Sequence record: PP781973.1
Reading direction: 5' to 3' (one strand)
Source of the DNA: Pseudomonas phage vB_PaeM_RyC23_M4LORT
Length of the DNA stretch: 64,000 bases
Positions 3,443 to 62,633 of this stretch are shown here, one piece after another (position 1 is the stretch's first letter; each line of letters opens with the position of its first letter). The position numbers and the translations under genes were made by a program. The notes beneath the pieces are model-generated. The model was not told the origin of the DNA. It did not search any database and saw nothing but the letters and a program-made list of their open reading frames with translations.

Positions 3443-3849
3443 TTGTTCTCCAAATCGGCGAGGAACTGAACAATGTTATCCAGTCCTTCTGCATAGCTCG
3501 CAACTTCCACCAAGTCGCGGCTGTTAAGCTCGAACAAATCGAGCATGGGATTCAGCAGCAGCCAATCGGTCCCGATCTTGGCCAGGACGAAGCCACGGCC
3601 GCCCCAGCCGATCCGTTCCCGAAGGAAAGGGATTTGCCCAGGCTCGAAACATCTGGCCATTGGGCAGGTGGAGGCGCGTTTCGGCCACTCCTCCAACGCC
3701 TTGAACTCGACCCAGAACTGGACACCTCGACGATTCAGGCAAATCGAATCGGACATACCAGACCGCCGCGTCTCCAGAAAGTCGATCAGGATTCGGCCGA
3801 GTGAGCGTTGCTTAAACGCATTCGCCGCTTTCGTTTCGCGATCATTCAT
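3439..3849 (-). CDS. VRR-NUC-like (PD-(D/E)xK) nuclease
   Basis: 136 aa; VQFWVEFKALEE...Q..FL motif spacing; frequent partner of phage SNF2 helicases; ATGA overlap with neighbouring genes. Confidence 0.45.
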   Translation of the reverse strand: MNDRETKAANAFKQRSLGRILIDFLETRRSGMSDSICLNRRGVQFWVEFKALEEWPKRASTCPMARCFEPGQIPFLRERIGWGGRGFVLAKIGTDWLLLNPMLDLFELNSRDLVEVASYAEGLDNIVQFLADLENK

Positions 3850-6800
3850 CGCCTTCGCCCTCTTTGGAAACTTTCTCTGCTTGCGCTGCCAGCTTTGCTT
3901 TTTCGCGTTCGGTCAAAATCCTCTTGACGGCCTTCACGATGAACATATCGATTCCGCTGAGCTTCCAGCCTTTGATGAGGAACCAAGAGCCTGTCGGCGT
4001 TCCTTCAGCAATCTGCTTTCCGTATTGCAGATATTTTTCAGGCCTAATTCTGAAACGTATCGGCTGATCAACCGAGTCGTCAACACACATGATGTCGAGA
4101 AACTGCGACTGGCCCTTGTACACCGGGTTTTTCCCTTGATCTGCCCTCTTCTTCTGGCGAATCGGTTCGTTCTCATCAGACAGAACTTTTTTCACCATCT
4201 TGACAATGACCAGACCATCATCTCCATCGCGGATATCCCGAATGTTCTGAATGGGGTTTCCGGAAGTTACTCCAACCAGCTCCGGATTGTCATAAGCATG
4301 ACCCCAGAGCGTGTGAGCTTCGTTCAAATCTGCGAATTGAACTTCAGAATTCGACAGACTCGCGGCGACTTTCTCCCAATCCTGAAGCGTCTTCAGGTGG
4401 GTGCCTGCCAGCTCTTTATATTGAGCCTTCAGCTCCTTAAGATCGGCCTTCAACTCCTTCAGATCGGCCTTCAACAGTTTCTCCAGTTCTTTGTCTTGGC
4501 TGATTTTCGCCGAAAGAATCTGGGCTTCCAGAGCTGCTACATCAGCAGCCTTGTCCTCAACATCCTGTGCCGATATCGGGCAATTGGCCAGGGCGATCCT
4601 CGCGGCCTTGACTTCCTCACGAAGACGCAGGAACCGCTCGGCCTTCGCCGGGCCGAAGCCTTTGGCGTTCATGATGCCGCCGATCAGGCGCCCGTCCGCC
4701 ACCACCCAGTTGAGTTCGGAATGCTCCGGGTCCAGGGCCGTATATTCTACGCCTTCTTTGGCCAATTCGCGAAGGATAGACACAGTTTGCTGGTCGTCCT
4801 TCGCCGCCCGAAGGCACGCGGCCGCGTATTCCAGGCGATGATACCGCTTCATGTAGCAAGTCCAGTATGTCACCACGGCATAGCTTACCGAGTGGGAGCG
4901 GTTGAATCCCCAGGCGCCGAATGTCACCATTTCCTGCCAAACTCGGTGAGCGTCTTCCGGGGCGACGCCTATGGTCTTGGCGCCCTCGATGAACAATTCC
5001 CGGCGCTTGTTGAAAAATTCTTCGCCCTTTCGCGCCGACATCGCTTTCCGGATCGCCGACGTTTGTTCCCAGTCGAACTGACCAATGTCCTTAACAATTG
5101 ACATGATCTGTTCTTGGTACAGGAACACGCCATACGTCCCCGACAAATACTGCTCGACCTGCGGAATGGTATAGGTCACAGGCTCGCGGCCGGCCACGCG
5201 CTCGATATACTTGGTTGCCATACCAGAAGACAACGGACCCGGACGGGCGAGCGCCGTGATGTGGTCGATGTTCTCGAACGCGGTGATGTTGATCGCGTTT
5301 GCTACCGAGCGAACGGCCTGCCCTTCGAACTGGAAGATGCCGGACATTTTGTCTTCATTGAGAATGTCCAGAACCGCCTTGTCGTTCAAAGGCAAGTCGT
5401 ACAACTCTTGCGCGGTCACGCAGTTCGCGTCCTGGATGACTCCCAAAGTTCGAAGTCCAAGCGCGTCAATTTTGAGGAGATTCAGATATTCCGAATCGGG
5501 CTTGTCGAGCTGCGCAACGCCTTCGGAAGTCACCGTACAGAAGTCGATGACTTCATCGTTGCAGACCAGGATGCCTGCCGCGTGGACGCCAGAGTGGGAT
5601 GGGTGAATTTCGAGGTCGCCCATGCAGGCGGACGCGATCTCATACTTTTCGCGGAAGTCGCGGCCGGGCTGAGTTTTTTCGAAAGTATCCTCCAATCCTT
5701 TTCCATATCGTTCGTCCGCCGATGTATATTCGATGATCGAGTTTTTGATGTTGTCGGTGTCGTGGAATGGAATGCCGAAGCGTTTTCCGACGTGAGCGAT
5801 AACCGACGCGGCCTTGAGTGTGTTGATGTTACCCAACTTCACAACGTTCCAAGTGCCATACTTCTGCTGGAGATATTCGAACACTAGATAGCGATGGGTA
5901 TCGGCGAAGTCGATATCTATATCGGGAAGATCGGACCGGGAAATGTCGATAAAGCGCTGAAAGAGGAGGCGATGCGGGAGCGGGTCAACCTCTGTAATGC
6001 CAAGGAGATAGCAGACCAAAGAGCCGGCCGAAGAGCCGCGAGCTGGACCGACCAGCATGTGCTTCTTGGCAAACGCGACCAGATCTGCCACGACCAGGAA
6101 GTAGCTGTCGAAATCTTTCAGCTGAATCTGCTTGATCTCTTCTTGGAATCGATCCTCATACTCCTGGGTCCATTCCTTGATGTGGCCGCGACTGAGGCGG
6201 TAGGCTTGCCCCTCGCGAGCCAGAGCGACGATATCACCATCCAAGTGGATCATCGGCGCCTTCGCCAGTTTCACATCCGCCAACCGCTCGACTACCGCAC
6301 GAGTATTGGCTGCGGCAGTATCGAACTCTTCGCGAGTCATGATGTGGCGTAAACGGCTCCACAGCTCCTCTTCGGTGGCGATGTGGCGAAGGCCGACCGA
6401 TTCCCGCACCTTCCAGGCCGACGCGAAATCAGCATGGTCGATGGACGGCATGTCGTTGTAAGAGGTAATTACCACCGGCTTTCCGAATGCCCTGGCCGTC
6501 TCCATAGCGCCGTGCGCGGCGACCATCGACGCGGGATTGATGTCAATGTAGTCGATTCCGGCCAGATCCAGATGGGCATAGGCCTCGCCAGCGAATTTGA
6601 TGACGCCGTCAGCTTCCTGGAATTCTTGCGGAGTCAATCCTTGATTCTGGACCGACTTGGAAGTCAAGCGGTAGAACTTCTTGGTGTCCTTGGCGAGCAC
6701 CCAGGCTTTGAGCTTCAGCTCTTTCTCGCCATCGTCGGCGCATTTGATCGGGATTTCCATGCCGAATCCGCGAGGCAGTTCTGCCTTGGCAGCGGCTTGT

Positions 6801-6952
6801 TCCCAACGGACGTGGCCCCATGTTCCATCATCGACGATGGCGACGAATGGGGATTCGATCTCTTTGGCGCGCTCGATGATCTCCGGGAATCGACCATATG
6901 CGGCGCCGTAGGAGTAACCAGAGCGAACGCGGAGCTGAGGGAAAGACATCAT
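3842..6952 (-). CDS. dnaE: DNA polymerase III alpha subunit (DnaE-type, PHP domain), 1036 aa
   Basis: PHP N-terminus; hallmark LPDIDIDFADTHRYLVFEYLQQKYG; GLLKIDALGL; FNRSHSVSYA finger motif; C-terminal coiled-coil insertion (DLKELKADLKELKAQYKEL). Confidence 0.9.
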   Translation of the reverse strand: MMSFPQLRVRSGYSYGAAYGRFPEIIERAKEIESPFVAIVDDGTWGHVRWEQAAAKAELPRGFGMEIPIKCADDGEKELKLKAWVLAKDTKKFYRLTSKSVQNQGLTPQEFQEADGVIKFAGEAYAHLDLAGIDYIDINPASMVAAHGAMETARAFGKPVVITSYNDMPSIDHADFASAWKVRESVGLRHIATEEELWSRLRHIMTREEFDTAAANTRAVVERLADVKLAKAPMIHLDGDIVALAREGQAYRLSRGHIKEWTQEYEDRFQEEIKQIQLKDFDSYFLVVADLVAFAKKHMLVGPARGSSAGSLVCYLLGITEVDPLPHRLLFQRFIDISRSDLPDIDIDFADTHRYLVFEYLQQKYGTWNVVKLGNINTLKAASVIAHVGKRFGIPFHDTDNIKNSIIEYTSADERYGKGLEDTFEKTQPGRDFREKYEIASACMGDLEIHPSHSGVHAAGILVCNDEVIDFCTVTSEGVAQLDKPDSEYLNLLKIDALGLRTLGVIQDANCVTAQELYDLPLNDKAVLDILNEDKMSGIFQFEGQAVRSVANAINITAFENIDHITALARPGPLSSGMATKYIERVAGREPVTYTIPQVEQYLSGTYGVFLYQEQIMSIVKDIGQFDWEQTSAIRKAMSARKGEEFFNKRRELFIEGAKTIGVAPEDAHRVWQEMVTFGAWGFNRSHSVSYAVVTYWTCYMKRYHRLEYAAACLRAAKDDQQTVSILRELAKEGVEYTALDPEHSELNWVVADGRLIGGIMNAKGFGPAKAERFLRLREEVKAARIALANCPISAQDVEDKAADVAALEAQILSAKISQDKELEKLLKADLKELKADLKELKAQYKELAGTHLKTLQDWEKVAASLSNSEVQFADLNEAHTLWGHAYDNPELVGVTSGNPIQNIRDIRDGDDGLVIVKMVKKVLSDENEPIRQKKRADQGKNPVYKGQSQFLDIMCVDDSVDQPIRFRIRPEKYLQYGKQIAEGTPTGSWFLIKGWKLSGIDMFIVKAVKRILTEREKAKLAAQAEKVSKEGEGDE

Positions 6953-12028: not shown

Positions 12029-12919
12029 TTACTCTTCTTCACCATCGGAACCGTCGGCGCCCTGACCTTCACCGTCGTGCTCCTGGCCTTCATCGGCCTT
12101 CTCGTCATCGCCCTGGCCAGCTTCGTCTTCCTTCGAAGCGATGGCAACCAGATCGACCCAGCCCATGATTTCCAGCTTGCTCAGATAGCTGCGGACAGAG
12201 GTGCCATAGAGCAGATGGGCCACCTTCTCGCCGAAGGCTTCGATTTCGACCGGCTCACCAACGGTGCAGTGCTCGTTGATGTAAGCAAACACCTTGCCGC
12301 GAGTCGAGAAGGCCTGCGGGGTTCCATGGCCGTCGCCGGTCGGGATGAAGTGAGTGGCGCGGGGGCGACGCGAGCCGTTGGACTTCAGGTCTTCGCGGCG
12401 GGCTTCGGCCTTCGCGCGGCGCTCTTCCTGCTCTTCCTTGCGGCGCTGCTTCTCGGCTTCGCGCTCTGCCTTCTTCTGCTCGGCCAGGCGCTTGCGCTCT
12501 TCTTCGCGTGCGGCTTTCTGGGCTTCCTGCGCGGCCTTCTTCTCTTCGGCCTTCTTGGCGCGCTCGGCTTCCTTCTCGGCCTTCTTCTGCTCGCGCTCGG
12601 CTTCCTTCGCCTTCGCCTTCTCGGCCAGCTCGGCTTCCTTCGCCTTCGCCTTTTCAGCACGCTCGGCTTCCTTGGCGGCGGCCTTTTCCTTCGCCTTCTC
12701 GGCGCGCTCGGCTTCCTTCTTCTCGCGCTCGGCCTGGCGCTTCGCTTCTCGCTCGGCTTTCTTCTGCTCGGCTTCCTTGGCCTTGGCTTCGGCCTTCTCG
12801 GCGCGCTCGCGCTCTTTACGTTGACGCTCGGCGGCCTTCTCGGCTTTGCGCAGGGCTGCTGCTTGTTCCTTGGTCAGCTCTTCGCCTTGGGCCTGTTCGT
12901 TCTGGTCTTTCTGTTCCAT
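12029..12919 (-). CDS. Lys/Ala/Glu-repeat charged single-alpha-helix (ER/K-type) protein with a globular C-terminal domain and an acidic tail
   Basis: About 180 aa of AEKAKAKEAE / EREKKEAERAEKAKEK repeats; C-terminal domain ~80 aa; then D/E/G-rich tail; imperfect DNA repeats at 12380-12880. Confidence 0.55.
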   Translation of the reverse strand: MEQKDQNEQAQGEELTKEQAAALRKAEKAAERQRKERERAEKAEAKAKEAEQKKAEREAKRQAEREKKEAERAEKAKEKAAAKEAERAEKAKAKEAELAEKAKAKEAEREQKKAEKEAERAKKAEEKKAAQEAQKAAREEERKRLAEQKKAEREAEKQRRKEEQEERRAKAEARREDLKSNGSRRPRATHFIPTGDGHGTPQAFSTRGKVFAYINEHCTVGEPVEIEAFGEKVAHLLYGTSVRSYLSKLEIMGWVDLVAIASKEDEAGQGDDEKADEGQEHDGEGQGADGSDGEEE

Positions 12920-20609: not shown

Positions 20610-20634
20610 TGTAGTGATGGAGTGTACTTGGACT

Positions 20635-20660
20635 AGGCCGCCTTCGGGCGGTCTTTTCTT
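20635..20660 (+). terminator. Rho-independent terminator (GGCCGCC-TTCG-GGCGGTC followed by TTTTCTTT)
   Basis: GC stem plus T-tract immediately after the helicase gene. Confidence 0.6.
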
Positions 20661-20699
20661 TGGTGAGGCGTACATTCTATTAGGTTGTGGCCGAGTGAG

Positions 20700-21125
20700 A
20701 TTCGGAAGCTATCTGGTAATTAGGATGGGGTGGCGATGGTGTATTATGGAAAGTTCGTGGACGGTGGATCGAGGATTTTGTGTGGTGAGTGGGTGGATTA
20801 TGGAAAATCGACGATTCTGACTGGATTTTTGGGGTCGGCCGCGCCGGTCTTACTGGTAATTACCGAAACCGGGAATTTGGGTCGAGCCTTAGTGCCGCGT
20901 GGGCTTGAAGCGCTTATTCGGATACTTCCCGGTTTCGGATGCAGCCGCAAAAGTATACTACAGCGAAAATCGATTGCACAATCCTAATAGAAAAAATCTA
21001 TCACGGACGTTACCTATCTTTAAAATTAATAAAATTAATAGTAATTTGGTAATTTGGTAAACTTTAGTATTTGAAAGCCTCGCGGCACTAAGCTTGTACA
21101 TATCCCGTCAAGTTTCCGATTCCAG
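20700..21125. repeat. Iteron-bearing intergenic region 1: GGTG(T/G)ATTATGGAAA x2, CTGGTAATTA x2, GGTAATTTGG x2, a 13-bp inverted repeat (20863-20875 / 20926-20938), and inverted plus direct copies of a conserved box
   Basis: Seen directly in the sequence; the box 21073-21125 matches 40913-40965 at about 85% identity. Confidence 0.7.
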
Positions 21126-21409
21126 CCAGCTCGCGGCAGGGTCGCCGGAAACTTCCGGACTTCCAATCCATGGGTCGCGGCAACACCACGGCGGACTAAG
21201 CGGCAGGCACCAAAACTCGACGAACGGAACCGGAAATTTGGGAGCGCGACAGAATCGCTCAGCTGGACATATTTCTAACATTCTATTTAACACTCAATCC
21301 AAACACTCACCACCATCGTCTCCCGCCAACCGCCGACTCGATCCTCACCCACCAGCGGATCGCCCGTATAACATCCTATAACACCACCTAACACTCATTC
21401 ATCATCAAA

Positions 21410-21433
21410 CCCACCCAGACCTACAGCCCACCC
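21410..21433 (-). other. G-quadruplex motif on the minus strand (GGGTGGG-N10-GGGTGGG) inside a CA-rich non-coding tract spanning 21120-21570
   Basis: Plus strand reads CCCACCCAGACCTACAGCCCACCC; strong strand asymmetry and no ORF. Confidence 0.5.
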
Positions 21434-21570
21434 ACAAGCAGCCCATAGACGCGATCCCTGGCCCCATAGTACAATCGCGCCATACTCAGTGTCGCGGCAG
21501 AGCACCAGGCCCATCCACCACCAACGCCACCGCGACGACTCCAGAATCGAACTCAGGGACGCAGCACCAA

Positions 21571-22140
21571 ATGACCAAACACTACAGCCCCGACGATCTA
21601 GTCACGCCACAGGAATTCGCAGACCCGCATTTCGCGGCGATCAACCAAAAGCGATTCGACCTGTACATCGACCTGCGCGTCCAAGGCTACAGCTCCTGGC
21701 GGGTCTTCCGGGCCATCTGGGGTGAGGAGCACATGGACGGTCCCGCCCAGGCTCGCATCTTCGCGATGGAGTCCAACCCGTACTATCGCAAGCAGTTCAA
21801 GGCCAAGTTGAACGCGACCAAAACGTCCGACTTGTGGAATCCAAAGACGGCGCTCCACGAACTCCTCCAAATGGTTCGTGACCCCACCGTCAAGGACTCC
21901 AGTCGTCTGTCGGCCATCAAGGAATTGAACGTTCTGGCTGAAATCACGTTCGTGGACGAGTCTGGCAAGACCAGGATCGGTCGCGGTTTGGCCGACTTCT
22001 ACGCATCAGAAGCCGAGGCTCAGACCGCGACCGTCGCTGCTGCGGCCGAAGCCAATGGCTATGTGCCGGAAGGCGAAGAGGGCGATTTCCCGTCCCCGAC
22101 GCCGGAACCGACCGAGGAAGACCGCGCCAACCCCATTTAG
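21571..22140 (+). CDS. Hypothetical protein (189 aa) with an acidic C-terminus; small-terminase role possible but not supported
   Basis: ORF starting a plus-strand transcription unit after the non-coding tract; no recognisable motif. Confidence 0.45.
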   Translation: MTKHYSPDDLVTPQEFADPHFAAINQKRFDLYIDLRVQGYSSWRVFRAIWGEEHMDGPAQARIFAMESNPYYRKQFKAKLNATKTSDLWNPKTALHELLQMVRDPTVKDSSRLSAIKELNVLAEITFVDESGKTRIGRGLADFYASEAEAQTATVAAAAEANGYVPEGEEGDFPSPTPEPTEEDRANPI

Positions 22141-39416: not shown

Positions 39417-40252
39417 TGGCATTCAAGGCCTCCAAAAAGCGCGAGCGCCGGGCACCTCTTCCAGTCGGAAGAGGGAAGCCCATAATTCCATCGGCAGGAA
39501 TCGAGGCCTGGTATCGAAAGCAGATGAAGGATATGTCCAAGCTCATGATCTCCGACTATCGAAACGAGATTGAGAAGGCGCTGTCCCAGCCTGCGGCCGA
39601 ACGTTTCTTCGCCAGAGACGAATCCGTTAACGTCCTGTTCAAGATGACCCTTCGAAGCCTACAGCAGCGATGGAGCCGCATTTTTGAAGGTTTCGCGGCC
39701 AAGATCGCCCCGGAGTTCGTCAACCGGACCGAAGAAGCCGCTACCGCCGCGACCCTTCACAGCTTGTCGGTGGCCGGCGTCGATCAGCCACGAGCTGCGT
39801 ATAATGAGAGCGTCAGGAACACCCTGGAGGCCGCAACCACTTACAATCATACTCTCATCACCAAGATCCAAGAGGAAGTCCACGAGAAGATTTACACATC
39901 AGTAATGCTGTCTCTGACTTCCCCGAATCCGGAAGAGCAAGGAACTTCCGGCATAACTAACGCACTTCGCAAAGTCGGGAAGTTTTCTGAAGATCGAATC
40001 GAACTCATCGCAAGAGATCAAACAAGCAAGCTTTACAGTTCTCTGAGCGATGAGAGAATGGCGGAAAATGGAGTCGAGGAGTTCGAGTGGCTACACTCTT
40101 CTGCCGGCAAGACTCCTCGCCACACCCACCTGGAGAAAGATGGGAAGAGGTTCAAGCTGAATGACCCCAGACTTTGGGAGGGTCCGAAAGCAGACCAGGG
40201 GCCGCCAGGATGGGCGATTAACTGTAGATGCAGAAAGATACCAGTCATTTGA
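39413..40252 (+). CDS. Phage Mu F-like (SPP1 gp7) minor head / head-morphogenesis protein
   Basis: C-terminal signature HTHLEKDGKRF...PPGWAINCRCR; ATGA overlap with the portal gene. Confidence 0.85.
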   Translation: MMAFKASKKRERRAPLPVGRGKPIIPSAGIEAWYRKQMKDMSKLMISDYRNEIEKALSQPAAERFFARDESVNVLFKMTLRSLQQRWSRIFEGFAAKIAPEFVNRTEEAATAATLHSLSVAGVDQPRAAYNESVRNTLEAATTYNHTLITKIQEEVHEKIYTSVMLSLTSPNPEEQGTSGITNALRKVGKFSEDRIELIARDQTSKLYSSLSDERMAENGVEEFEWLHSSAGKTPRHTHLEKDGKRFKLNDPRLWEGPKADQGPPGWAINCRCRKIPVI

Positions 40253-40270
40253 CATCGATAGGAGCGCTAT

Positions 40271-40477
40271 ATGCCGTTAGTTCATGGCACTTCCAATGAG
40301 GCTCGTTCTGAAAACATCAAGCGGGAAATCGAAGCCGGTAAAGACCCAAAGCAGGCTGCGGCCATCGCTTATTCCATCCAGCGCAGTGAGGAAGGGAAGA
40401 CGGCGAAAGATTGTTCGCCTGAGCTCGTCGCCGATCTTCGCGCCCTGGTGGACGCTCTGTCGAGGCTCGTGAAATGA
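40271..40477 (+). CDS. Small hypothetical protein (68 aa)
   Basis: ORF. Confidence 0.4.
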
Positions 40478-40614
40478 ACCGCAAGACGTGCCGGCGCCGA
40501 CTCGTGGTCGATGTAATCAGGGCCAATATTCACGGCGGATTCTTCAGCCTGAAGTTTGCCGCCATCGATTTGGCAATCATCGGCGTCGCCATCTTGATGG
40601 CTTTTGGCCGATAA
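40474..40614 (+). CDS. Small single-transmembrane-helix protein (46 aa) [46 protein letters not shown]
   Basis: ATGA overlap with the upstream gene; not in the ORF track. Confidence 0.3.
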
Positions 40615-40639
40615 TGCTGAGAAAAATCTGGATTCTGAC

Positions 40640-40995
40640 TAAAAATTCTAGTCCGGATAGCCGCAAGTTACCGTTTACGGAAAATAGCAGTAATTTGGAA
40701 ATCCTACTGCCGCGAGGCTTTAACAGAGCCAGTTCCTAATTTCCGATTTAGCCGCATGCTTCAAAAGTATATAGCCTGGGAAATTAGAAGTAACGTTCCA
40801 ATAGAATTCATCTATAAGTAACGTTATAATATAACGTCAATCTATATGCTCTAGACGTATTGAAATTCAATTTTTAATCGGTAAATTGGTAATTTGAATT
40901 AGTTTAGGAGTTGAAAGCCTCGCGGCAGTAGGCTTAGACAAATCCCGTCAAGTTTCCGAGACCAAATTACCGGATTTTCGCGGCTGAGGAAACTG
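40640..40995. repeat. Iteron-bearing intergenic region 2: inverted copy (40694-40712) and direct copy (40914-40932) of the 19-bp box AAAGCCTCGCGGCAGTAGG, GGTAA(A)TTTGG repeats, CTGGTAATTA, and the shared element CCCGTCAAGTTTCCGA
   Basis: Same architecture as region 1 (20700-21125); seen directly. Confidence 0.7.
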
Positions 40996-41127
40996 GTAAT
41001 TAGATCACAATACAAATTATAATGTAAGTTAACAGTCACGGCTACATCTAATTATTGTTCCGCTTATTTACCCTTAGATGTACTGCGTATATAATACAGC
41101 CATAGTCCACGACTCTTCGAATTAACG

Positions 41128-42561
41128 ATGGCAAAGTCGAAAAGAAAAATTGACGAAAATGGATATATGACCATAGAGGGCTGCCCGATCAGCTCTTATG
41201 GCGTTTTCCAATATTCTGCTGGTCAACTCGGTCTTCCGGGCGATCCGACGCGGATTGTCAACGTATATCGCCCGGAGTCTGCCGTCAGCGATCCGGAGTA
41301 CATCGAATCTCTGAAGAATCTCCCGTTGATCGACGAGCATGAGATGCTGTCGGGATTCGACGATGATGACGATAGCGTGGCCCCCGAAGACAAAGGGGTG
41401 GAGGGCATCATCACATCCAACGCTTACTACGAAGCCCCATGGGCACGCGGCGATATCCGCATCTATTCCCGCAACATGCAGAATCAGCTGGAAAGGGGCA
41501 AAGAAGACCTGTCCCTAGGCTATAGTTGCCGCTACACTGAGCAACCCGGCATCTGGAACGGGACGCCTTATGAAGTCGTCCAGGACAAGATGCGCGGCAA
41601 CCACATCGCCCTGGTAAAAGAGGGTCGTGTGCCGGGGGCCAGAGTATTGGATGGTCTGTGTTTTGACCATCTCAGTTTTGATTTCAGACCATCCGATGAG
41701 GGTAATGAAATGAGTCTCAAGAAAGCCAAGCGGAAGCCCCCTGTCCAGCGCGTAGGGCAAGCTGCTGACTCGGCGGTCGAAGAGTTGCGCGCCCTGTGGC
41801 CGAAGCTATCTGCGTCTGTCCAGAAGTTCCTGGGCGAAGAAGAGCAGGAGCCGGAGCATCAGGAAGGCGCAGCTCCGGCCGAACCGACCGACAGCGAGCA
41901 CCTGACCGAGCATCCGACTCTGGAAGGTGCTCAGAAGGATGACGAAGAGCAGGAAGAGGAGCCTTCCGTTGTCGATCCGGCCGTGGCCGCCGTCGAGCCG
42001 GAGCATCAAGAAGGTGCCGCATCCGAAATGTCCGGTGAAGGCGAAGTCGCCGAACTGATCTCTCAAGTCAAGGCCATTCTGGCTCGACTGGAGGGCACGG
42101 TAGCCGAAGGGGCGGACGAAGAGCATGGCGAAGGTCAAGATGTCGTCGAGGGCTTGGAAGAGCAGAGCAGCCTCAGCGGCGCGCAAACCGCCAGCGACGA
42201 TGGTGGTGAGGGCAAGGATAACAGCGAGGAACTTCCTGAAATGGCACAGAAGAACGCGCAAGATGCTGCAATTCGCGGTCTCTATCGCGACATTGCTGCT
42301 AAAGATCGCCTCTACAAGCGTCTTAGCTCCGTGGTTGGTGCGTTCGATCACCGAGCTATGGACTCGGCTGAAGTCGCTGTTTACGGCGTGAAAAAGCTGA
42401 ACATCAGCTGTGCGAAGGGCCAGGAAGCTCTGGCGCTCGACATGTACCTGAAAGGCGTCGAAGCCTCGCGCGGCGCGGCCAGCCGTCAATCGAAAGCCCA
42501 GGATTCGGCCGGTTCTGCTCCGCAGTGCGCCGAGCTGGACAGCTACCTGAAGGGGGAGTAA
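41128..42561 (+). CDS. Putative prohead protease / scaffolding fusion (Mu gpI-like N-terminus, acidic C-terminal scaffold-like region)
   Basis: N-terminal about 190 aa with a GNHIALVKEGR-type motif; the following ~250 aa are Glu/Asp-rich low complexity; sits between the Mu F-like gene and the capsid gene. Confidence 0.5.
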   Translation: MAKSKRKIDENGYMTIEGCPISSYGVFQYSAGQLGLPGDPTRIVNVYRPESAVSDPEYIESLKNLPLIDEHEMLSGFDDDDDSVAPEDKGVEGIITSNAYYEAPWARGDIRIYSRNMQNQLERGKEDLSLGYSCRYTEQPGIWNGTPYEVVQDKMRGNHIALVKEGRVPGARVLDGLCFDHLSFDFRPSDEGNEMSLKKAKRKPPVQRVGQAADSAVEELRALWPKLSASVQKFLGEEEQEPEHQEGAAPAEPTDSEHLTEHPTLEGAQKDDEEQEEEPSVVDPAVAAVEPEHQEGAASEMSGEGEVAELISQVKAILARLEGTVAEGADEEHGEGQDVVEGLEEQSSLSGAQTASDDGGEGKDNSEELPEMAQKNAQDAAIRGLYRDIAAKDRLYKRLSSVVGAFDHRAMDSAEVAVYGVKKLNISCAKGQEALALDMYLKGVEASRGAASRQSKAQDSAGSAPQCAELDSYLKGE

Positions 42562-58152: not shown

Positions 58153-59663
58153 CTCTGCCTGCGTACAATTCGGACATCCAACAAGCTCTGAAATGGCTCC
58201 ATAACCAGGCGCCTGGAATCACCGGCCTGATCCAGAGAAAGGCGCAATGGTATGACAGATTCAGCCGCCAATTCTGGGCCAACTGGGAGCGCGACGTTTT
58301 CCACTTGAAAACTGCCAACCCGTTCGGCCTTATGGTTTGGTGCATCATCCTCGGCACGCCTTCGAAAGGGTTCGGCCTTTATCCAAAAAACAGTTCTTGG
58401 GCATTCGGTCGGCTACGCCAGAACTTCATCTATAGCGGTACACAAGTTCCGCCACCGGCAGACGCATCGCCTGGCGGCAACTTCTACGGTGGCGGCAATG
58501 CCGAAATTCTCAACTTGGACGAAATCAGGAAAGTGCTTCAGCTAAGATATGTAGCGCTGATTTCTAACGGCTCGATTGCATATGTCAATCGCATGCTTCG
58601 TTACATATTCAATGATGATGAGCCATGGGACGAGGCGACCGGTCTGTACTTCTATCTCATGGACTCAACCGGCGAGAATGGCCCTGTGGAGAACTTGGCG
58701 ATATATCGGAAAGATTGGGAAGGTATGGTGCTGTTGTCCAGTTCGCCCAGAACGAACCATGTGCTGACATCGACCCCTGCCAGCGACGCCGATTGGCCGG
58801 GAGTCGATCCGGCCGCGAGCGGTATTCCGGTAACGGTCGAAACGGCGTCCGCTACGGCCCCGGACGGCTCCGCTACGGTGTGCAAGCTTACTAAGCCGGC
58901 CGGGAGTACTGCTTACGTCTCCGCGCCGATAGATGGGCCGCTGGGGTCCGGTAGCACTGTAACGTTCTCGTTCTTCGCGAAAGCCGGCTCCACCCGTTTC
59001 ATTGCAATTCAGTCGGCTGCCGATTTCCCCAGTCGAGCCGATGCCGTTTTCGACCTGGATTCCGGGAACGTGATCAGCGATCAGATGTTGGACAGCAGCG
59101 TGGTAAGCGCCCGAATGATTCGTCTGGAAAATGGCTGGTGGCGTTGCGTTCTCACGACCAAGACCGTCAGCTCTTCGTTCCGCGCTGCTTACGTCGCTCC
59201 GGCAGAAACCAACTTCAGCTGGATTGATTCGAATTCCAGCGCGGCGATTGACGTGCTTATATGGGGCGCTCAGATCGAACTGGGTGATACTCCAACTGGA
59301 TACTTGGAGACTACCGGGGCGCCCGTAACCATCACCGATTATGTTTTGCAGAACGCCCAGACCGGAACAGTCAAGTTCACACAGCCCCTTCCGACCGGAG
59401 TAGAAGCGTATTGGACTGGAGACTGGAAAGGCGGGTCTGCGACCGAGCCGGCCAGATTCGCAGTAGGGGATGGGACTCAAGATGCATTCAATTTGTCCAG
59501 CCCTGCATACATCGGCCTACCCACTAGTGGGGCGTTCAAGCTAGAATACAGAGTTGGTCCGGCGCTTAATTTGTCGCCGCAATTGATCAACCTCATGAAT
59601 GACCGGGCGGTCGGTATCATGCCGACTTGCGCCGGTTGCGATGTAAAAGTCATTCAGGAGTAA
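58149..59663 (+). CDS. Baseplate wedge / tail-fibre-proximal protein (P2 I-like, DUF2612-like N-terminus)
   Basis: 504 aa; overlaps the J gene by 4 nt. Confidence 0.55.
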   Translation: MTLPAYNSDIQQALKWLHNQAPGITGLIQRKAQWYDRFSRQFWANWERDVFHLKTANPFGLMVWCIILGTPSKGFGLYPKNSSWAFGRLRQNFIYSGTQVPPPADASPGGNFYGGGNAEILNLDEIRKVLQLRYVALISNGSIAYVNRMLRYIFNDDEPWDEATGLYFYLMDSTGENGPVENLAIYRKDWEGMVLLSSSPRTNHVLTSTPASDADWPGVDPAASGIPVTVETASATAPDGSATVCKLTKPAGSTAYVSAPIDGPLGSGSTVTFSFFAKAGSTRFIAIQSAADFPSRADAVFDLDSGNVISDQMLDSSVVSARMIRLENGWWRCVLTTKTVSSSFRAAYVAPAETNFSWIDSNSSAAIDVLIWGAQIELGDTPTGYLETTGAPVTITDYVLQNAQTGTVKFTQPLPTGVEAYWTGDWKGGSATEPARFAVGDGTQDAFNLSSPAYIGLPTSGAFKLEYRVGPALNLSPQLINLMNDRAVGIMPTCAGCDVKVIQE

Positions 59664-59667
59664 TGAC

Positions 59668-61914
59668 GTGATCACACCCGAACTGATACCCAGTCCGTTT
59701 GCTGCGCAGGGCGACAAAGACCCGATTCCGCAGACCTCTTCCACTGGTTTTGCCAACCTTCGCGACGGCTACACGCCGGACTACGAAATCAGTCTGGCGT
59801 CGAACAACCCGCAGGCCAAAGCGGTCGAGCGGAAAATTCAAAACCAACTCTTCTTCATCGCGACCCAGAACGCACAGGCGTGGCAGCGACAAATGGCACC
59901 GCCGTGGTTTCAGGGCATGCCTGGCGGCTACGAACAGAATGCAGAAGTCGTGCGCGTCGGAAATGACGGCATAATGCGGCGTTATCGTTCCATGGTGAAT
60001 GCCAATGCGAGCGACCCTCTCAGCAGCACGACTTGGGAAGAACAACCCGCATGGTCGGCGATGCGCTCCAACATCCCGATGCCGGCCGGAGGCCCAGGCC
60101 TATCTTCTGGCGGAGAAGTCATCACGACCGGCCGCAACTTCAACGACCTGTTAAATGGGACGTGGGAGTTCTTCTCTGATTCAGTGGTTATCGCTTCTCA
60201 GAATGCCCCCGTATATCCGGCTTCCGCTGGTGCCGCTGCTGGCATGTTGGAGGCGAAATCTTGGGTGTCCGGAGCCAATACGTTCTGCGTCCAACGCTAC
60301 ACTGATCGCGTCGGGAACGTCGCTGTGCGCGGGCTTAATGCCGGAGCGTGGACCAACTGGATGTATGCGGTAAACGTCATGGCCCTTCAACAAGGTCGGG
60401 TCACCTATGGAGTCGCGGCCGGATCGGCGAACGCTTACACGTTGACGCTAGTTCCGCAGCTCCAAGGCGGCCTGGTGGATGGCATGATTCTTCGGGTCAA
60501 GTTCAATACCATGAACACCGGCGCCTCCACCATCAACGTCTCCGGACTCGGCGCCAAAGCCATCGTCGGCGCGGCCAACTTCCCTCTCACCGGCGGCGAA
60601 CTTGGCCAAGGACTCATCGCTGAGCTTGTATTCGACGCAGCAGGCGACCGCTGGAGAATCCTCGCAGGCGCGTCACGCATCCAAGTTGGCAACGCCGATC
60701 AGGACTACCAGGCGCCGAGTTGGAAGCAAGTTAAAGACTATGTCGCGTCCCAAAAGCTCACCGAAGTGGATTGGACGGATGTCGTCAACAAGCCGAACGT
60801 CGCTATCCAAGATACAACGCCGTGGTTCGCCAATCTGGAGCTGTCCGATGCTCGGCCTTTCATCGATTTCCACTTCAACAGCAATCGCGCCAAAGATTTT
60901 GACTATCGGCTGATATCTGAAGCAGACGGATCGCTGGCTTTCTATTCGCGGCAGGGGTCTGCTGGGCCTACCCAGGACATCCTGTTCAACCGAAATTCCG
61001 TGACTTTCTTCCAGCCGCGACTCGATGTGGCGAAAAACCTCGCGTACATCGCGAACTCTGGCCCCCTTTGGCAGAACACCACCGCCGATCAGCCCGGTTG
61101 GAAATTCACCTTTGCACAAGGCGTGGACGCGAACAACAACGCGGTGATCGCAGTCAATACCACCAATCCGGACGGTTCCTATCGTTCACAGGTCATGCGA
61201 TGGGACTGGGCGTCCACGAACGTCATATTCAACAACCGTCCGCTCTTCGCCGGTCAATACACCCCTTGGGATTCTGGGAACTTCGATCCTTCCACCAAGT
61301 TGACGGTGAGCGCCACGAACCAAATCGCCGGCCCAACGGGGATTTGGAATACCAACGGCAACACCGGCAACATGAACACCTGGGGTTCCGGCTCCACGAC
61401 GGCATCCTATGGCAATGCTGCCATTCAAATCTTCGGAAAAGGGGGCGGTGAGCCTGCCGCGATCTATTTCGACAACTCCCAGACCGGATGGTATCTGGGC
61501 ATGGACAAGGATGGACAGCTCAAGCGGGCCGGCTGGTCGCTCGGCAATAACTCCTATGTGATCACCGACGAATCCAACATCCGAACCCATATCAACACAA
61601 TGGCTGCGCGCCCGATTTGGGGGAATGTCGAGTTCTGGGGTCCGTGGAACTTCGATCCGAATCTTAAACTCACTTTGAACGCTTTCAATGATAGCTCATA
61701 CACCAGGATGACCAACAGCGGCGCGAAAGACGTTGGTATCGCGTCCATGACGAGTTATGCTGATGCGGCCATGTCATTCTTCAACTATGAAGCCTCGAAT
61801 CCGACCGGGCCGCGCGCGGCCGTTATTTCGTTCGTGAGAAATGGATCGCGTGGAGTGCTATTCGGCTTGGATTCTGACAACAAGCTGAAGTGGGGCGGAT
61901 ATTTTCGTTCGTGA
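59668..61914 (+). CDS. Tail fibre protein, apparently truncated by a 77-bp tandem duplication
   Basis: 748 aa; the ORF ends ...GGYFRS* inside the second repeat copy. Confidence 0.65.
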   Translation: MITPELIPSPFAAQGDKDPIPQTSSTGFANLRDGYTPDYEISLASNNPQAKAVERKIQNQLFFIATQNAQAWQRQMAPPWFQGMPGGYEQNAEVVRVGNDGIMRRYRSMVNANASDPLSSTTWEEQPAWSAMRSNIPMPAGGPGLSSGGEVITTGRNFNDLLNGTWEFFSDSVVIASQNAPVYPASAGAAAGMLEAKSWVSGANTFCVQRYTDRVGNVAVRGLNAGAWTNWMYAVNVMALQQGRVTYGVAAGSANAYTLTLVPQLQGGLVDGMILRVKFNTMNTGASTINVSGLGAKAIVGAANFPLTGGELGQGLIAELVFDAAGDRWRILAGASRIQVGNADQDYQAPSWKQVKDYVASQKLTEVDWTDVVNKPNVAIQDTTPWFANLELSDARPFIDFHFNSNRAKDFDYRLISEADGSLAFYSRQGSAGPTQDILFNRNSVTFFQPRLDVAKNLAYIANSGPLWQNTTADQPGWKFTFAQGVDANNNAVIAVNTTNPDGSYRSQVMRWDWASTNVIFNNRPLFAGQYTPWDSGNFDPSTKLTVSATNQIAGPTGIWNTNGNTGNMNTWGSGSTTASYGNAAIQIFGKGGGEPAAIYFDNSQTGWYLGMDKDGQLKRAGWSLGNNSYVITDESNIRTHINTMAARPIWGNVEFWGPWNFDPNLKLTLNAFNDSSYTRMTNSGAKDVGIASMTSYADAAMSFFNYEASNPTGPRAAVISFVRNGSRGVLFGLDSDNKLKWGGYFRS

Positions 61915-61979
61915 GAAATGGATCGCGTGGAGTGCTATTCGGCTTGGATTCTGACAACAAGCTGAAGTGGGGCGGATAT
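61826..61979. repeat. Perfect 77-bp direct tandem duplication (2 x 77 bp)
   Basis: ttcgttcgtgagaaatggatcgcgtggagtgctattcggcttggattctgacaacaagctgaagtggggcggatatt appears twice back to back. Confidence 0.85.
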
Positions 61980-62633
61980 TCCCTAGGGGCCGTCGCGTTC
62001 GAGATTGCCGACTCCAACAACCTCATGAGCCTGTGGTCATCCCACGCTGCCGCGCCGAACTGGAACGGGCAGACCATCTGGAGGTCGGGAAACTTCAACC
62101 CAGACACCAAGGCGACTTTGGCAGCTCGCAATACGACGTCATCCCCTACAATATTCAGTTATGGGGCGTCCGGAATCGCATCAACCGGACAGGTCGGTGC
62201 GTTGGTTGTGGAAAACAACAGCGTCACCAATACCGCAGCCGCCATCACGTTCCATTCGCCGCAGAAATATCAGGTCAACTTCGGCCTGGATGCGGACAAC
62301 GTGGTAAAGATCGGTGGCGGCACAATGGGCGGCGTAGCATATCCCATCATCCACTCCGGCAACTACAACAACTACATCAACCAGGCGCTGGTTCAGGTGG
62401 GTCTTGGCGGAGTCGGTTCCTACGCGATCCTTGCCGTGTACGATACTTCCGCACCGGCATCGTCCGTTGGACCTGGTACCATCTTGGACAGTTCCAAGCT
62501 GTTCTATTCGTCCTGCGATTCGACCTATCGCAGCAGCGCCCGTCCGACGGGCACCTGGCGCTGCATGGGGTATGTGTATAACCGAGACTCCACCAACGGC
62601 GACTCGGCATCCCTATTCCAGCGGGTAACGTAA
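61890..62633 (+). CDS. Tail fibre C-terminal segment, separated from 59668-61914 by the duplication-induced frameshift
   Basis: Starts MGRIFSFVRNGSRGVLFGLDSDNKLKWGGY, the same peptide that ends the upstream ORF. Confidence 0.5.
   Translation: MGRIFSFVRNGSRGVLFGLDSDNKLKWGGYSLGAVAFEIADSNNLMSLWSSHAAAPNWNGQTIWRSGNFNPDTKATLAARNTTSSPTIFSYGASGIASTGQVGALVVENNSVTNTAAAITFHSPQKYQVNFGLDADNVVKIGGGTMGGVAYPIIHSGNYNNYINQALVQVGLGGVGSYAILAVYDTSAPASSVGPGTILDSSKLFYSSCDSTYRSSARPTGTWRCMGYVYNRDSTNGDSASLFQRVT

Follow-up and report, generated by a model that had tools for sequence, protein, structure and literature searches.

This work deals with a non-coding element located at positions 40,640–40,995 of a 64,000-nucleotide (nt) stretch of Pseudomonas phage vB_PaeM_RyC23_M4LORT (record PP781973.1), the whole of which is referred to hereafter as the window. 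The element (region 2, or module 2) lies between the MuF-like gene cluster and the head maturation protease gene. According to the comparison of their sequences, it is a diverged paralogue of the packaging-initiation (pac) region of the phage (region 1, or module 1), which is placed upstream of the small terminase gene (terS), and this two-site arrangement is conserved across three genera (Pbunavirus, Wifcevirus, and Kylevirus). As to its function, we would give about an even chance to the idea that the element is a protein-binding module acting at the DNA level, most plausibly a second recognition site of the small terminase.

Module 2 contains a perfect 19-bp inverted repeat, in which CCTACTGCCGCGAGGCTTT (40703–40721) is the exact reverse complement of AAAGCCTCGCGGCAGTAGG (40914–40932); the repeat extends to 22 nt with a complementarity of 95% (40700–40721/40914–40935). 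The original prediction, which had reported such a repeat with arms about 200 bp apart, was therefore right, the actual distance between the arms being 192 nt. Probing the 64-kb window with the 19-mer, allowing up to three mismatches, retrieved three occurrences vs. 0.01 expected from dinucleotide-preserving shuffles, that is, beyond chance. The third one (21074–21092, two mismatches) corresponds to the right box of region 1, whose boxes in this window are also 22 nt long, 82% complementary to each other and 161 nt apart. The two regions can be aligned over about 300 bp (~20815–21120 vs. ~40630–40960), and the best block (79 nt) shares 83.5% identity, in agreement with the earlier suggestion that the element is a second copy of the one in region 1. 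Both modules are built alike, with an AT-rich core, inverted boxes of 19–22 bp (TGCCGCG ... CGCGGCA), GGTAATT-type repeats, and a common downstream block. Both module-2 boxes have self-complementary ends (AAGCC-N11-GGCTT), and the 17-bp palindrome of the module-2 core (ACGTTATA-A-TATAACGT) is found in the region-2 copy only, as an insertion relative to region 1.

The gene located directly downstream of region 1 matches the "Small terminase" of phage E217 (PDB 7UXE) with E = 7e-125 over 189 amino acids (aa), and published data from different phages map the start of packaging between the region-1 boxes. Base 1 of Ab27–29 was set by Essoh et al. from reads with a single fixed end (PMC4482731); that of Ab27 (CGATTGCAC...) corresponds to position 20971 of the window, and the records of Pa193 and BrSP1 begin at the same base. 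In JG024, 36 out of 161 long reads start at 59,376 ± 5, a start that also fits a matching restriction "pac fragment" obtained with XbaI (Ipoutcha et al., PMC10913387); this position was found by mapping to coincide with that site (AAAAT^CGATTGC), which lies between the boxes of JG024. Moreover, the pac site that PhageTerm yielded for SCUT-S1 was assigned by Guo et al. to "an AT-rich region" (PMC6521218). Region 1 shows the adjacency to terS that is a feature of pac sites, whereas region 2, located 19.8 kb downstream of terS and before the protease gene, does not. Region 1 thus being the packaging-initiation region, module 2 can be regarded as its paralogue. The original prediction, which had correctly recognized the copy, the repeat, and the gap, had missed this link with the small terminase gene and packaging.

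The flanking of the AT-rich core by repeated motifs, another feature of pac sites, was also found, since GGTAATT repeats surround it together with the inverted boxes. Seven out of the eleven GGTAATT copies of the window fall in the two gaps harboring the modules, which represent 2.3% of the sequence (binomial P = 1e-9); in this sense, the original description of the element as iteron-like holds in part, as far as the enrichment is concerned. The same is true for TCGCGGCA, with 6 of its 14 copies in the two gaps (P = 4e-7). Four plus-strand copies of TCGCGGCA occur in the terS leader, at 21080, 21131, 21175, and 21492; the first lies at about +6 from the start of promoter P040 and the last at about +10 from that of P041 (both described below). 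The match GGTAATTACC at 6464 was taken as a chance one, being inside a large open reading frame (ORF) on the minus strand (3842–6952).

Concerning the gap that embeds module 2, its identity to the corresponding sequences of phages cory and PSA25 is 0.90 and 0.92, while, for the portal, MuF, scaffold, and capsid genes, the identity with the same two phages at third codon positions is 0.64–0.83. The constrained parts include the boxes, the AT-rich core (whose identity between species is 0.91–0.93), the stretch 40936–41060, and the promoter; relaxation is limited to a pair of short patches on the inner side of the boxes. On this basis, the whole gap appears to be under purifying selection, and these comparisons indicate that it is functional non-coding DNA, evolving far slower than synonymous sites. 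Its GC content is 0.42 vs. about 0.55 elsewhere in the window. The presence, among the head genes, of a non-coding gap of unusual length that separates the MuF-like genes from the protease had been pointed out before, and this was confirmed: no ORF of at least 25 aa is conserved across its 513 bp in the ten Pbunavirus species-level copies compared. Scans for tRNA and tmRNA did not retrieve any match, and neither did Rfam, at the gathering score across the whole window or at E <= 1 within 40550–41180. The record of phage WP1 was left out of the comparisons because its genes are full of frameshifts.

The gap upstream of terS (20610–21570, 960 bp) has a G-rich left part (GC skew +0.33) and a C-rich right part (−0.28), and it holds nested weak inverted repeats. 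By eye, the gaps upstream of terS in two phages of the other genera (CWP003 and PA1, see below) show similar G-rich and C-rich flanks. Moreover, a perfect 13-bp inverted repeat, CCGAAACCGGGAA/TTCCCGGTTTCGG (20863–20875/20926–20938), brackets the region-1 left box; in the alignment, other region-1 and region-2 variants seem, by eye, to carry a different short inverted pair at that place.

The same design was found outside Pbunavirus, in two distant genera whose analogous modules have 9-bp repeats of their own. In Shigella phage CWP003 (Wifcevirus), whose protease and small terminase are 44% and 39% identical to those of the window, the gap between the MuF-like and protease genes contains a perfect 22-nt inverted repeat made up of 9-bp units around an AT-rich core. 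The CWP003 unit, ATCCGTATC, occurs nine times in 68.7 kb, and all nine copies are in the gaps upstream of terS and of the protease gene (P = 2.5e-16). In Pantoea phage PA1 (Kylevirus), seven of the eight copies of the unit ATAACCGTT fall in the two gaps (P = 4e-12), and 23-nt inverted arms lie 105–106 nt apart in both modules. In CWP003 and PA1, tandem 9-bp units are arrayed to form the arms, and additional copies occur in either orientation. All three genera have TGCCGC on the left side of the AT core and GCGGCA on its right side. In Wifcevirus and Kylevirus, the module stays with terS, the primase gene being about 7–9 kb away. The records of Wifcevirus WFH and of Pantoea phage Kyle begin about 360 nt upstream of terS, and so does a Wifcevirus-like uncultivated virus genome (UViG) of IMG/VR (2974651032), whose start was verified to lie inside the module-1 AT core. 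This last sequence is 72,472 bp long and carries terS at both ends, with a terminal redundancy of about 3.8 kb. A profile search of IMG/VR for relatives of terS retrieved only Pbunavirus and Wifcevirus-like contigs; an exact 16-mer scan of the same database gave mostly chance matches and was discarded. Scanning 596 Gb of bacterial genomes for the box yielded 53 single matches in unrelated taxa vs. about 69 expected, none of them in Pseudomonas and none paired. The features of the two modules in the window and of their neighborhood are listed in Table 1.

Table 1. Coordinates of the features of modules 2 and 1 and of the adjacent genes in the window
Feature	Position	Strand	Remarks
Non-coding gap	40615–41127	.	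513 bp, between a 46-aa ORF (40474–40614) and the head protease gene
Left inverted box of module 2, AATCCTACTGCCGCGAGGCTTT	40700–40721	.	Core TGCCGCG; near-invariant in 10 Pbunavirus copies
AT-rich core between the module-2 boxes	40722–40913	.	Homologous to the region-1 core holding the packaging cut
28-bp direct repeat within the module-2 core	40788–40846		
17-bp palindrome ACGTTATAATATAACGT in the module-2 core	40821–40837		
Predicted sigma-70-like promoter, TTGAAA-N16-TAAATT	40860–40887	+	Listed in the annotations of LMA2 and LBL3
Tandem short repeats GGTAAATT GGTAATTT G	40880–40896	+	Adjoin the right box of module 2
Right inverted box of module 2, AAAGCCTCGCGGCAGTAGGCTT	40914–40935	.	Core CGCGGCA
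Block ATCCCGTCAAGTTTCCGA	40942–40959	+	Conserved between both paralogues, in 20/20 copies examined
Further GGTAATT copies	40965–40971 and 40995–41001	− and +, respectively	
Sigma-70 promoter P014, TTTACC-N17-TATAAT	41067–41095, start ~41103	+	14-1 start site 13257; drives the protease gene
Head maturation protease gene (DUF2213)	41128–42561	+	First gene downstream of module 2
Region-1 left box, CTTAGTGCCGCGTGGGCTTGAA	20888–20909	.	
Packaging-initiation (pac) cut, AAAAT^CGATTGC	20970/20971	+	Between the region-1 boxes
Region-1 counterpart of the tandem repeats, GTAATTTG x2.5	21041–21060		
Region-1 right box, TTGAAAGCCTCGCGGCACTAAG	21071–21092	.	
Small terminase gene (terS)	21571–22140	+	Directly downstream of region 1

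We can depict the following possible mechanism. The same sequence-specific protein, most plausibly the ring-shaped decameric small terminase, would recognize the boxes and the repeats of both modules. The terminase makes the first cut in module 1, between the boxes, where the published read ends place it. Module 2, which immediately precedes the sigma-70 promoter of the protease-scaffold-capsid operon, would serve as a recognition site and not as a major cut site. Module 2 could pair with the pac site during the initiation of packaging, as once proposed for T4; alternatively, it could couple the expression of the head genes to the level of terminase. The small terminase of E217 is a decamer, and small terminases diverge fast (PMC9611059); the genus-specific tandem 8–9-bp units fit a fast-evolving oligomeric DNA binder. 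A wider scheme of two-site packaging recognition in Pbunavirus, Wifcevirus, and Kylevirus, with the small terminase ring binding both the cut and the uncut module and their pairing or competition licensing packaging or tying capsid synthesis to the terminase, is somewhat unlikely, and we advance it as a tentative proposal.

Some data weigh against a terminase site in module 2. The small terminase of E217 showed no appreciable DNA binding in vitro (PMC9611059), with a DNA that may not have included the boxes. PhageTerm gave no significant peaks at all on phage Banzai (PMC12390725), which may simply reflect a permuted population, and the JG024 study flagged no position other than 59,376 (PMC10913387). 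No packaging start has been reported in module 2 and, among the GenBank records seen, none starts in region 2. Furthermore, the near-perfect complementarity of the module-2 boxes is not needed for the binding of a protein and would suit a nucleic-acid stem as well. Lastly, in Xanthomonas phage XcP1, the gap found at this place (370 bp) shows just a local 18-nt hairpin and no comparable repeat; hence, not all members of the wider group share the architecture.

The layout of module 1 recalls that of known packaging sites. In P1 pac and in SPP1 pacL-pacC-pacR, repeated recognition motifs are found on either side of the region of the first cut, at the small terminase gene and overlapping its promoter region. 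Module 1 has the same layout and the mapped DNA ends, whereas module 2, the second of the two paralogues, is 19.8 kb distant from terS, and no cut has been reported in it; moreover, the boxes described here form a long, near-perfect inverted pair and are not short hexamers. In lambda cosB (R3-I1-R2), inverted elements bound by gpNu1 flank a bendable AT-rich segment, and a multimer contacts both of them. The likeness lies in the inverted elements around an AT-rich segment, their binding role being putative in our case; however, lambda, a cos phage, has a single site in its genome, with a spacing of tens of bp vs. the 160–190 bp observed here. As for T4, it has been proposed that homologous sites located in gene 16 and in gene 19 undergo "pac synapsis", the small terminase pairing them through double rings (PMC9611059). 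The common points are the presence of two homologous sites per genome, one of them at the small terminase gene, and their proposed joining before packaging starts (PMC9611059); however, the T4 sites are short, intragenic, and about 3 kb apart, whereas those reported here are 300-bp non-coding modules 16–20 kb apart. Synapsis of the two modules is, in the present case, pure conjecture.

To place the modules with respect to transcription, we used the start and end sites of the related phage 14-1, obtained through ONT-cappable-seq by Putzeys et al. on pooled time points of 3–12 min (PMC10914365; supplement tables of the preprint) and positioned on the window by sequence identity. From the portal promoter to the tail sheath region, P014 is the only plus-strand start of 14-1, and its promoter region resembles the Wifcevirus counterpart. 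In region 1, P040 starts at 21074/21075, the first or second base of the right box, and consequently the left box is not on the P040 transcript; P041 starts at about 21482, and both P040 and P041 read into the small terminase gene. The promoter predicted inside module 2 is absent from the start-site table of 14-1. "AT-rich boxes" of unassigned function and a predicted promoter had already been reported in this gap by Garbe et al., whose sigma-70 promoter prediction in JG024 falls at the 17-bp palindrome (PMC3008698); no 14-1 start site is found there. The AT-rich core also includes, at 40775–40779, the sequence CTGGG, which is the core of the second 14-1 promoter motif; the F8-type copies do not conserve it, and start sites have not been reported at this position. 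The 14-1 maps show no start, termination site, or small RNA candidate inside the region-2 repeat, and no termination site is listed in region 1 either. Two candidate functions were discarded: a small RNA, as the sole non-coding RNA candidate of Putzeys et al. in 14-1 lies elsewhere (62561–62469), and an intrinsic terminator or attenuator, given that neither a predicted hairpin followed by a T run nor a mapped 3' end was found.

These promoters raise the possibility of a transcriptional operator or enhancer, in which the boxes would bind a phage or host regulator other than the terminase, acting on the promoters of terS and of the head operon, possibly through DNA looping. Both modules carry or adjoin sigma-70 promoters mapped in 14-1 (P040 and P041 before terS, P014 before the protease gene), the region-1 right box covers about +1 to +19 of P040, which is a classic operator position, a copy of TCGCGGCA stands at about +10 of P041, and the right box of module 2 is just downstream of the predicted promoter embedded in that module. 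The looped operator pairs of lac, gal, and ara offer a parallel, with two related boxes 160–190 bp apart, one of which, in region 1, lies over a transcription start; nevertheless, no regulator is known here, and neither region-2 box overlaps a mapped promoter. Indeed, the region-2 right box lies about 170–190 nt upstream of the sole mapped start, that of P014; only two sites per genome are present despite the many other late promoters, and, in three genera, the module goes along with terS and with the packaging cut. We thus regard this explanation as somewhat unlikely.

A long-range RNA stem is a different case. Transcripts reading through from the portal and MuF genes would fold the boxes into a duplex of 19–22 bp around 192 nt, which might represent an RNase III site or a structure stabilizing or insulating the mRNA. 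The plus strand folds with −79.5 kcal/mol (z = −6.6), and no terminator separates the upstream genes from the gap, since no terminator-like site was predicted within 40200–41400. Moreover, the stem is kept in ten Pbunavirus genomes, where the region-2 boxes maintain 17–19 out of 19 pairs: one pair, changed on both sides, is G-C in four genomes, A-T in four, and A.C in two; another one has changed from G-C to G.T (G-U) in seven out of ten; and the remaining pairs are invariant except for one mismatch in one genome. The covariation of the boxes represents thin evidence, compatible with both a DNA site and a stem. On the other hand, the single covarying pair is probably due to one event, with A.C intermediates in two genomes, and the minus strand folds equally well (z = −6.8); the inverted repeat by itself therefore explains the fold score. 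The region-1 boxes are complementary at 14–17 out of 19 positions (mismatches at 2–5/19, with 3–5/19 in six of the ten copies), and the left one is upstream of the mapped start. Furthermore, there is no Rfam match even at E = 1, the 14-1 data list no 3' ends or processed species here, and the relatives use arrays of tandem repeats. Binding of a protein at the DNA level is favored because module 2 is the paralogue of a DNA site, both strands fold, the region-1 boxes mismatch, their left box is off the transcript, and the relatives have tandem arrays of the kind seen where proteins bind DNA; an RNA stem appears quite unlikely. Of the mechanisms originally offered, the binding of a factor fits better, whereas a long-range stem or a terminator-antiterminator structure is disfavored by the lack of a terminator, by that of mapped ends in 14-1, and by the mismatches of region 1.

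Two related candidates were examined and rejected. An extended hairpin covering nearly the whole element had been obtained by folding the single sequence, but RNAalifold drops its pairs, and the dyad symmetry of the DNA ends after about 26 nt. The "compensatory" differences between the region-1 and region-2 boxes do not reflect maintained pairing, either: six out of the ten region-1 copies pair a left box of the region-2 type with a region-1 right box, which points to a mosaic.

A third scenario is that the element is a replication origin, or one of two, with the boxes as initiator sites, the AT core as the unwinding element, and the promoter priming the synthesis. The anatomy (AT-rich core, repeats, and promoter) is compatible with it, region 1 directly follows the primase/helicase gene in Pbunavirus, and the authors of SCUT-S1 proposed the AT-rich pac region as a possible origin (PMC6521218). 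However, Wifcevirus and Kylevirus do not keep the linkage with the primase/helicase gene, the Pbunavirus minima of cumulative GC skew have been reported at other positions (PMC12390725), and the virion DNA ends in module 1 point to packaging, so that we consider an origin improbable. Finally, a mobile or switchable element (an invertible promoter segment or an insertion resembling a miniature inverted-repeat transposable element), suggested by the 19–22-bp inverted repeat flanking about 190 bp with a promoter-like sequence, is very hard to reconcile with the same orientation in 294 out of 298 genomes, each as a single alignment piece, with a homology between copies running past both boxes, with the same two syntenic places in three genera, and with the occurrence of the box at chance level and with no paired matches in the 596 Gb of bacterial genomes.

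As for the genomic context, the sequence matches assign the window to a PB1-like Pseudomonas aeruginosa phage of the genus Pbunavirus. The stretch 40600–41130 is 100% identical to vB_PaeM_PAO1_Ab27 and to about 16 further records; region 2 is present in 298 phage records, and in 294 of them a single colinear alignment covers at least 80% of the query. The 46-aa ORF preceding the gap comes after the portal/MuF-like genes, and the annotations of Ab27 and 14-1 indicate, as upstream neighbors, small ORFs following the portal ("minor head protein") and the MuF-like "head morphogenesis" genes. Between 20971 and 40600, the window is not collinear with Ab27 (NC_026586.1), having 444 bp fewer between terS and region 2, and its region 1 is nearest to that of phage P1420 (99.9% identity); this genome is therefore a mosaic. 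Two further repeats were observed far from the modules: a perfect tandem duplication at 61826–61980 (77-bp unit, 2.0 copies, 100% match), and repeats with a 33-nt period at 12480–12900, with an extreme T-over-A bias on the plus strand (AT skew −0.68), whose sequence resembles that of a coding repeat on the minus strand, with abundant Ala, Glu, and Lys.

For JG024, the position of the putative pac site had already been published (PMC10913387). In the literature searched, neither the architecture of the boxes nor the second copy nor its conservation across genera was found to be described, an earlier mention in Ceyssens 2009 or Lokareddy 2022 being possible; the two-site arrangement across three genera has thus apparently not been described before. 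The recognition of viral DNA by small terminases has been an open question for a long time; among the Pseudomonas phages used in therapy, the PB1-like ones are some of the most widely employed. The structure of the E217 small terminase has been solved (PDB 7UXE) and its DNA target is not known; the 19–22-bp boxes and the GGTAATT repeats of the two modules represent candidate targets. The pac cut is placed between the boxes of one module, and a second, apparently uncut copy is kept before the capsid operon in three genera. Binding, synapsis, and regulation can be tested with existing tools, such as the yeast rebooting of JG024 and the cappable-seq of 14-1. The finding is also relevant to the engineering of phages, as packaging or the expression of the head genes may be affected if this "empty" gap is deleted or moved. 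If true, the two-site system would represent a conserved long-range pair of cis-elements of a kind undescribed for pac phages.
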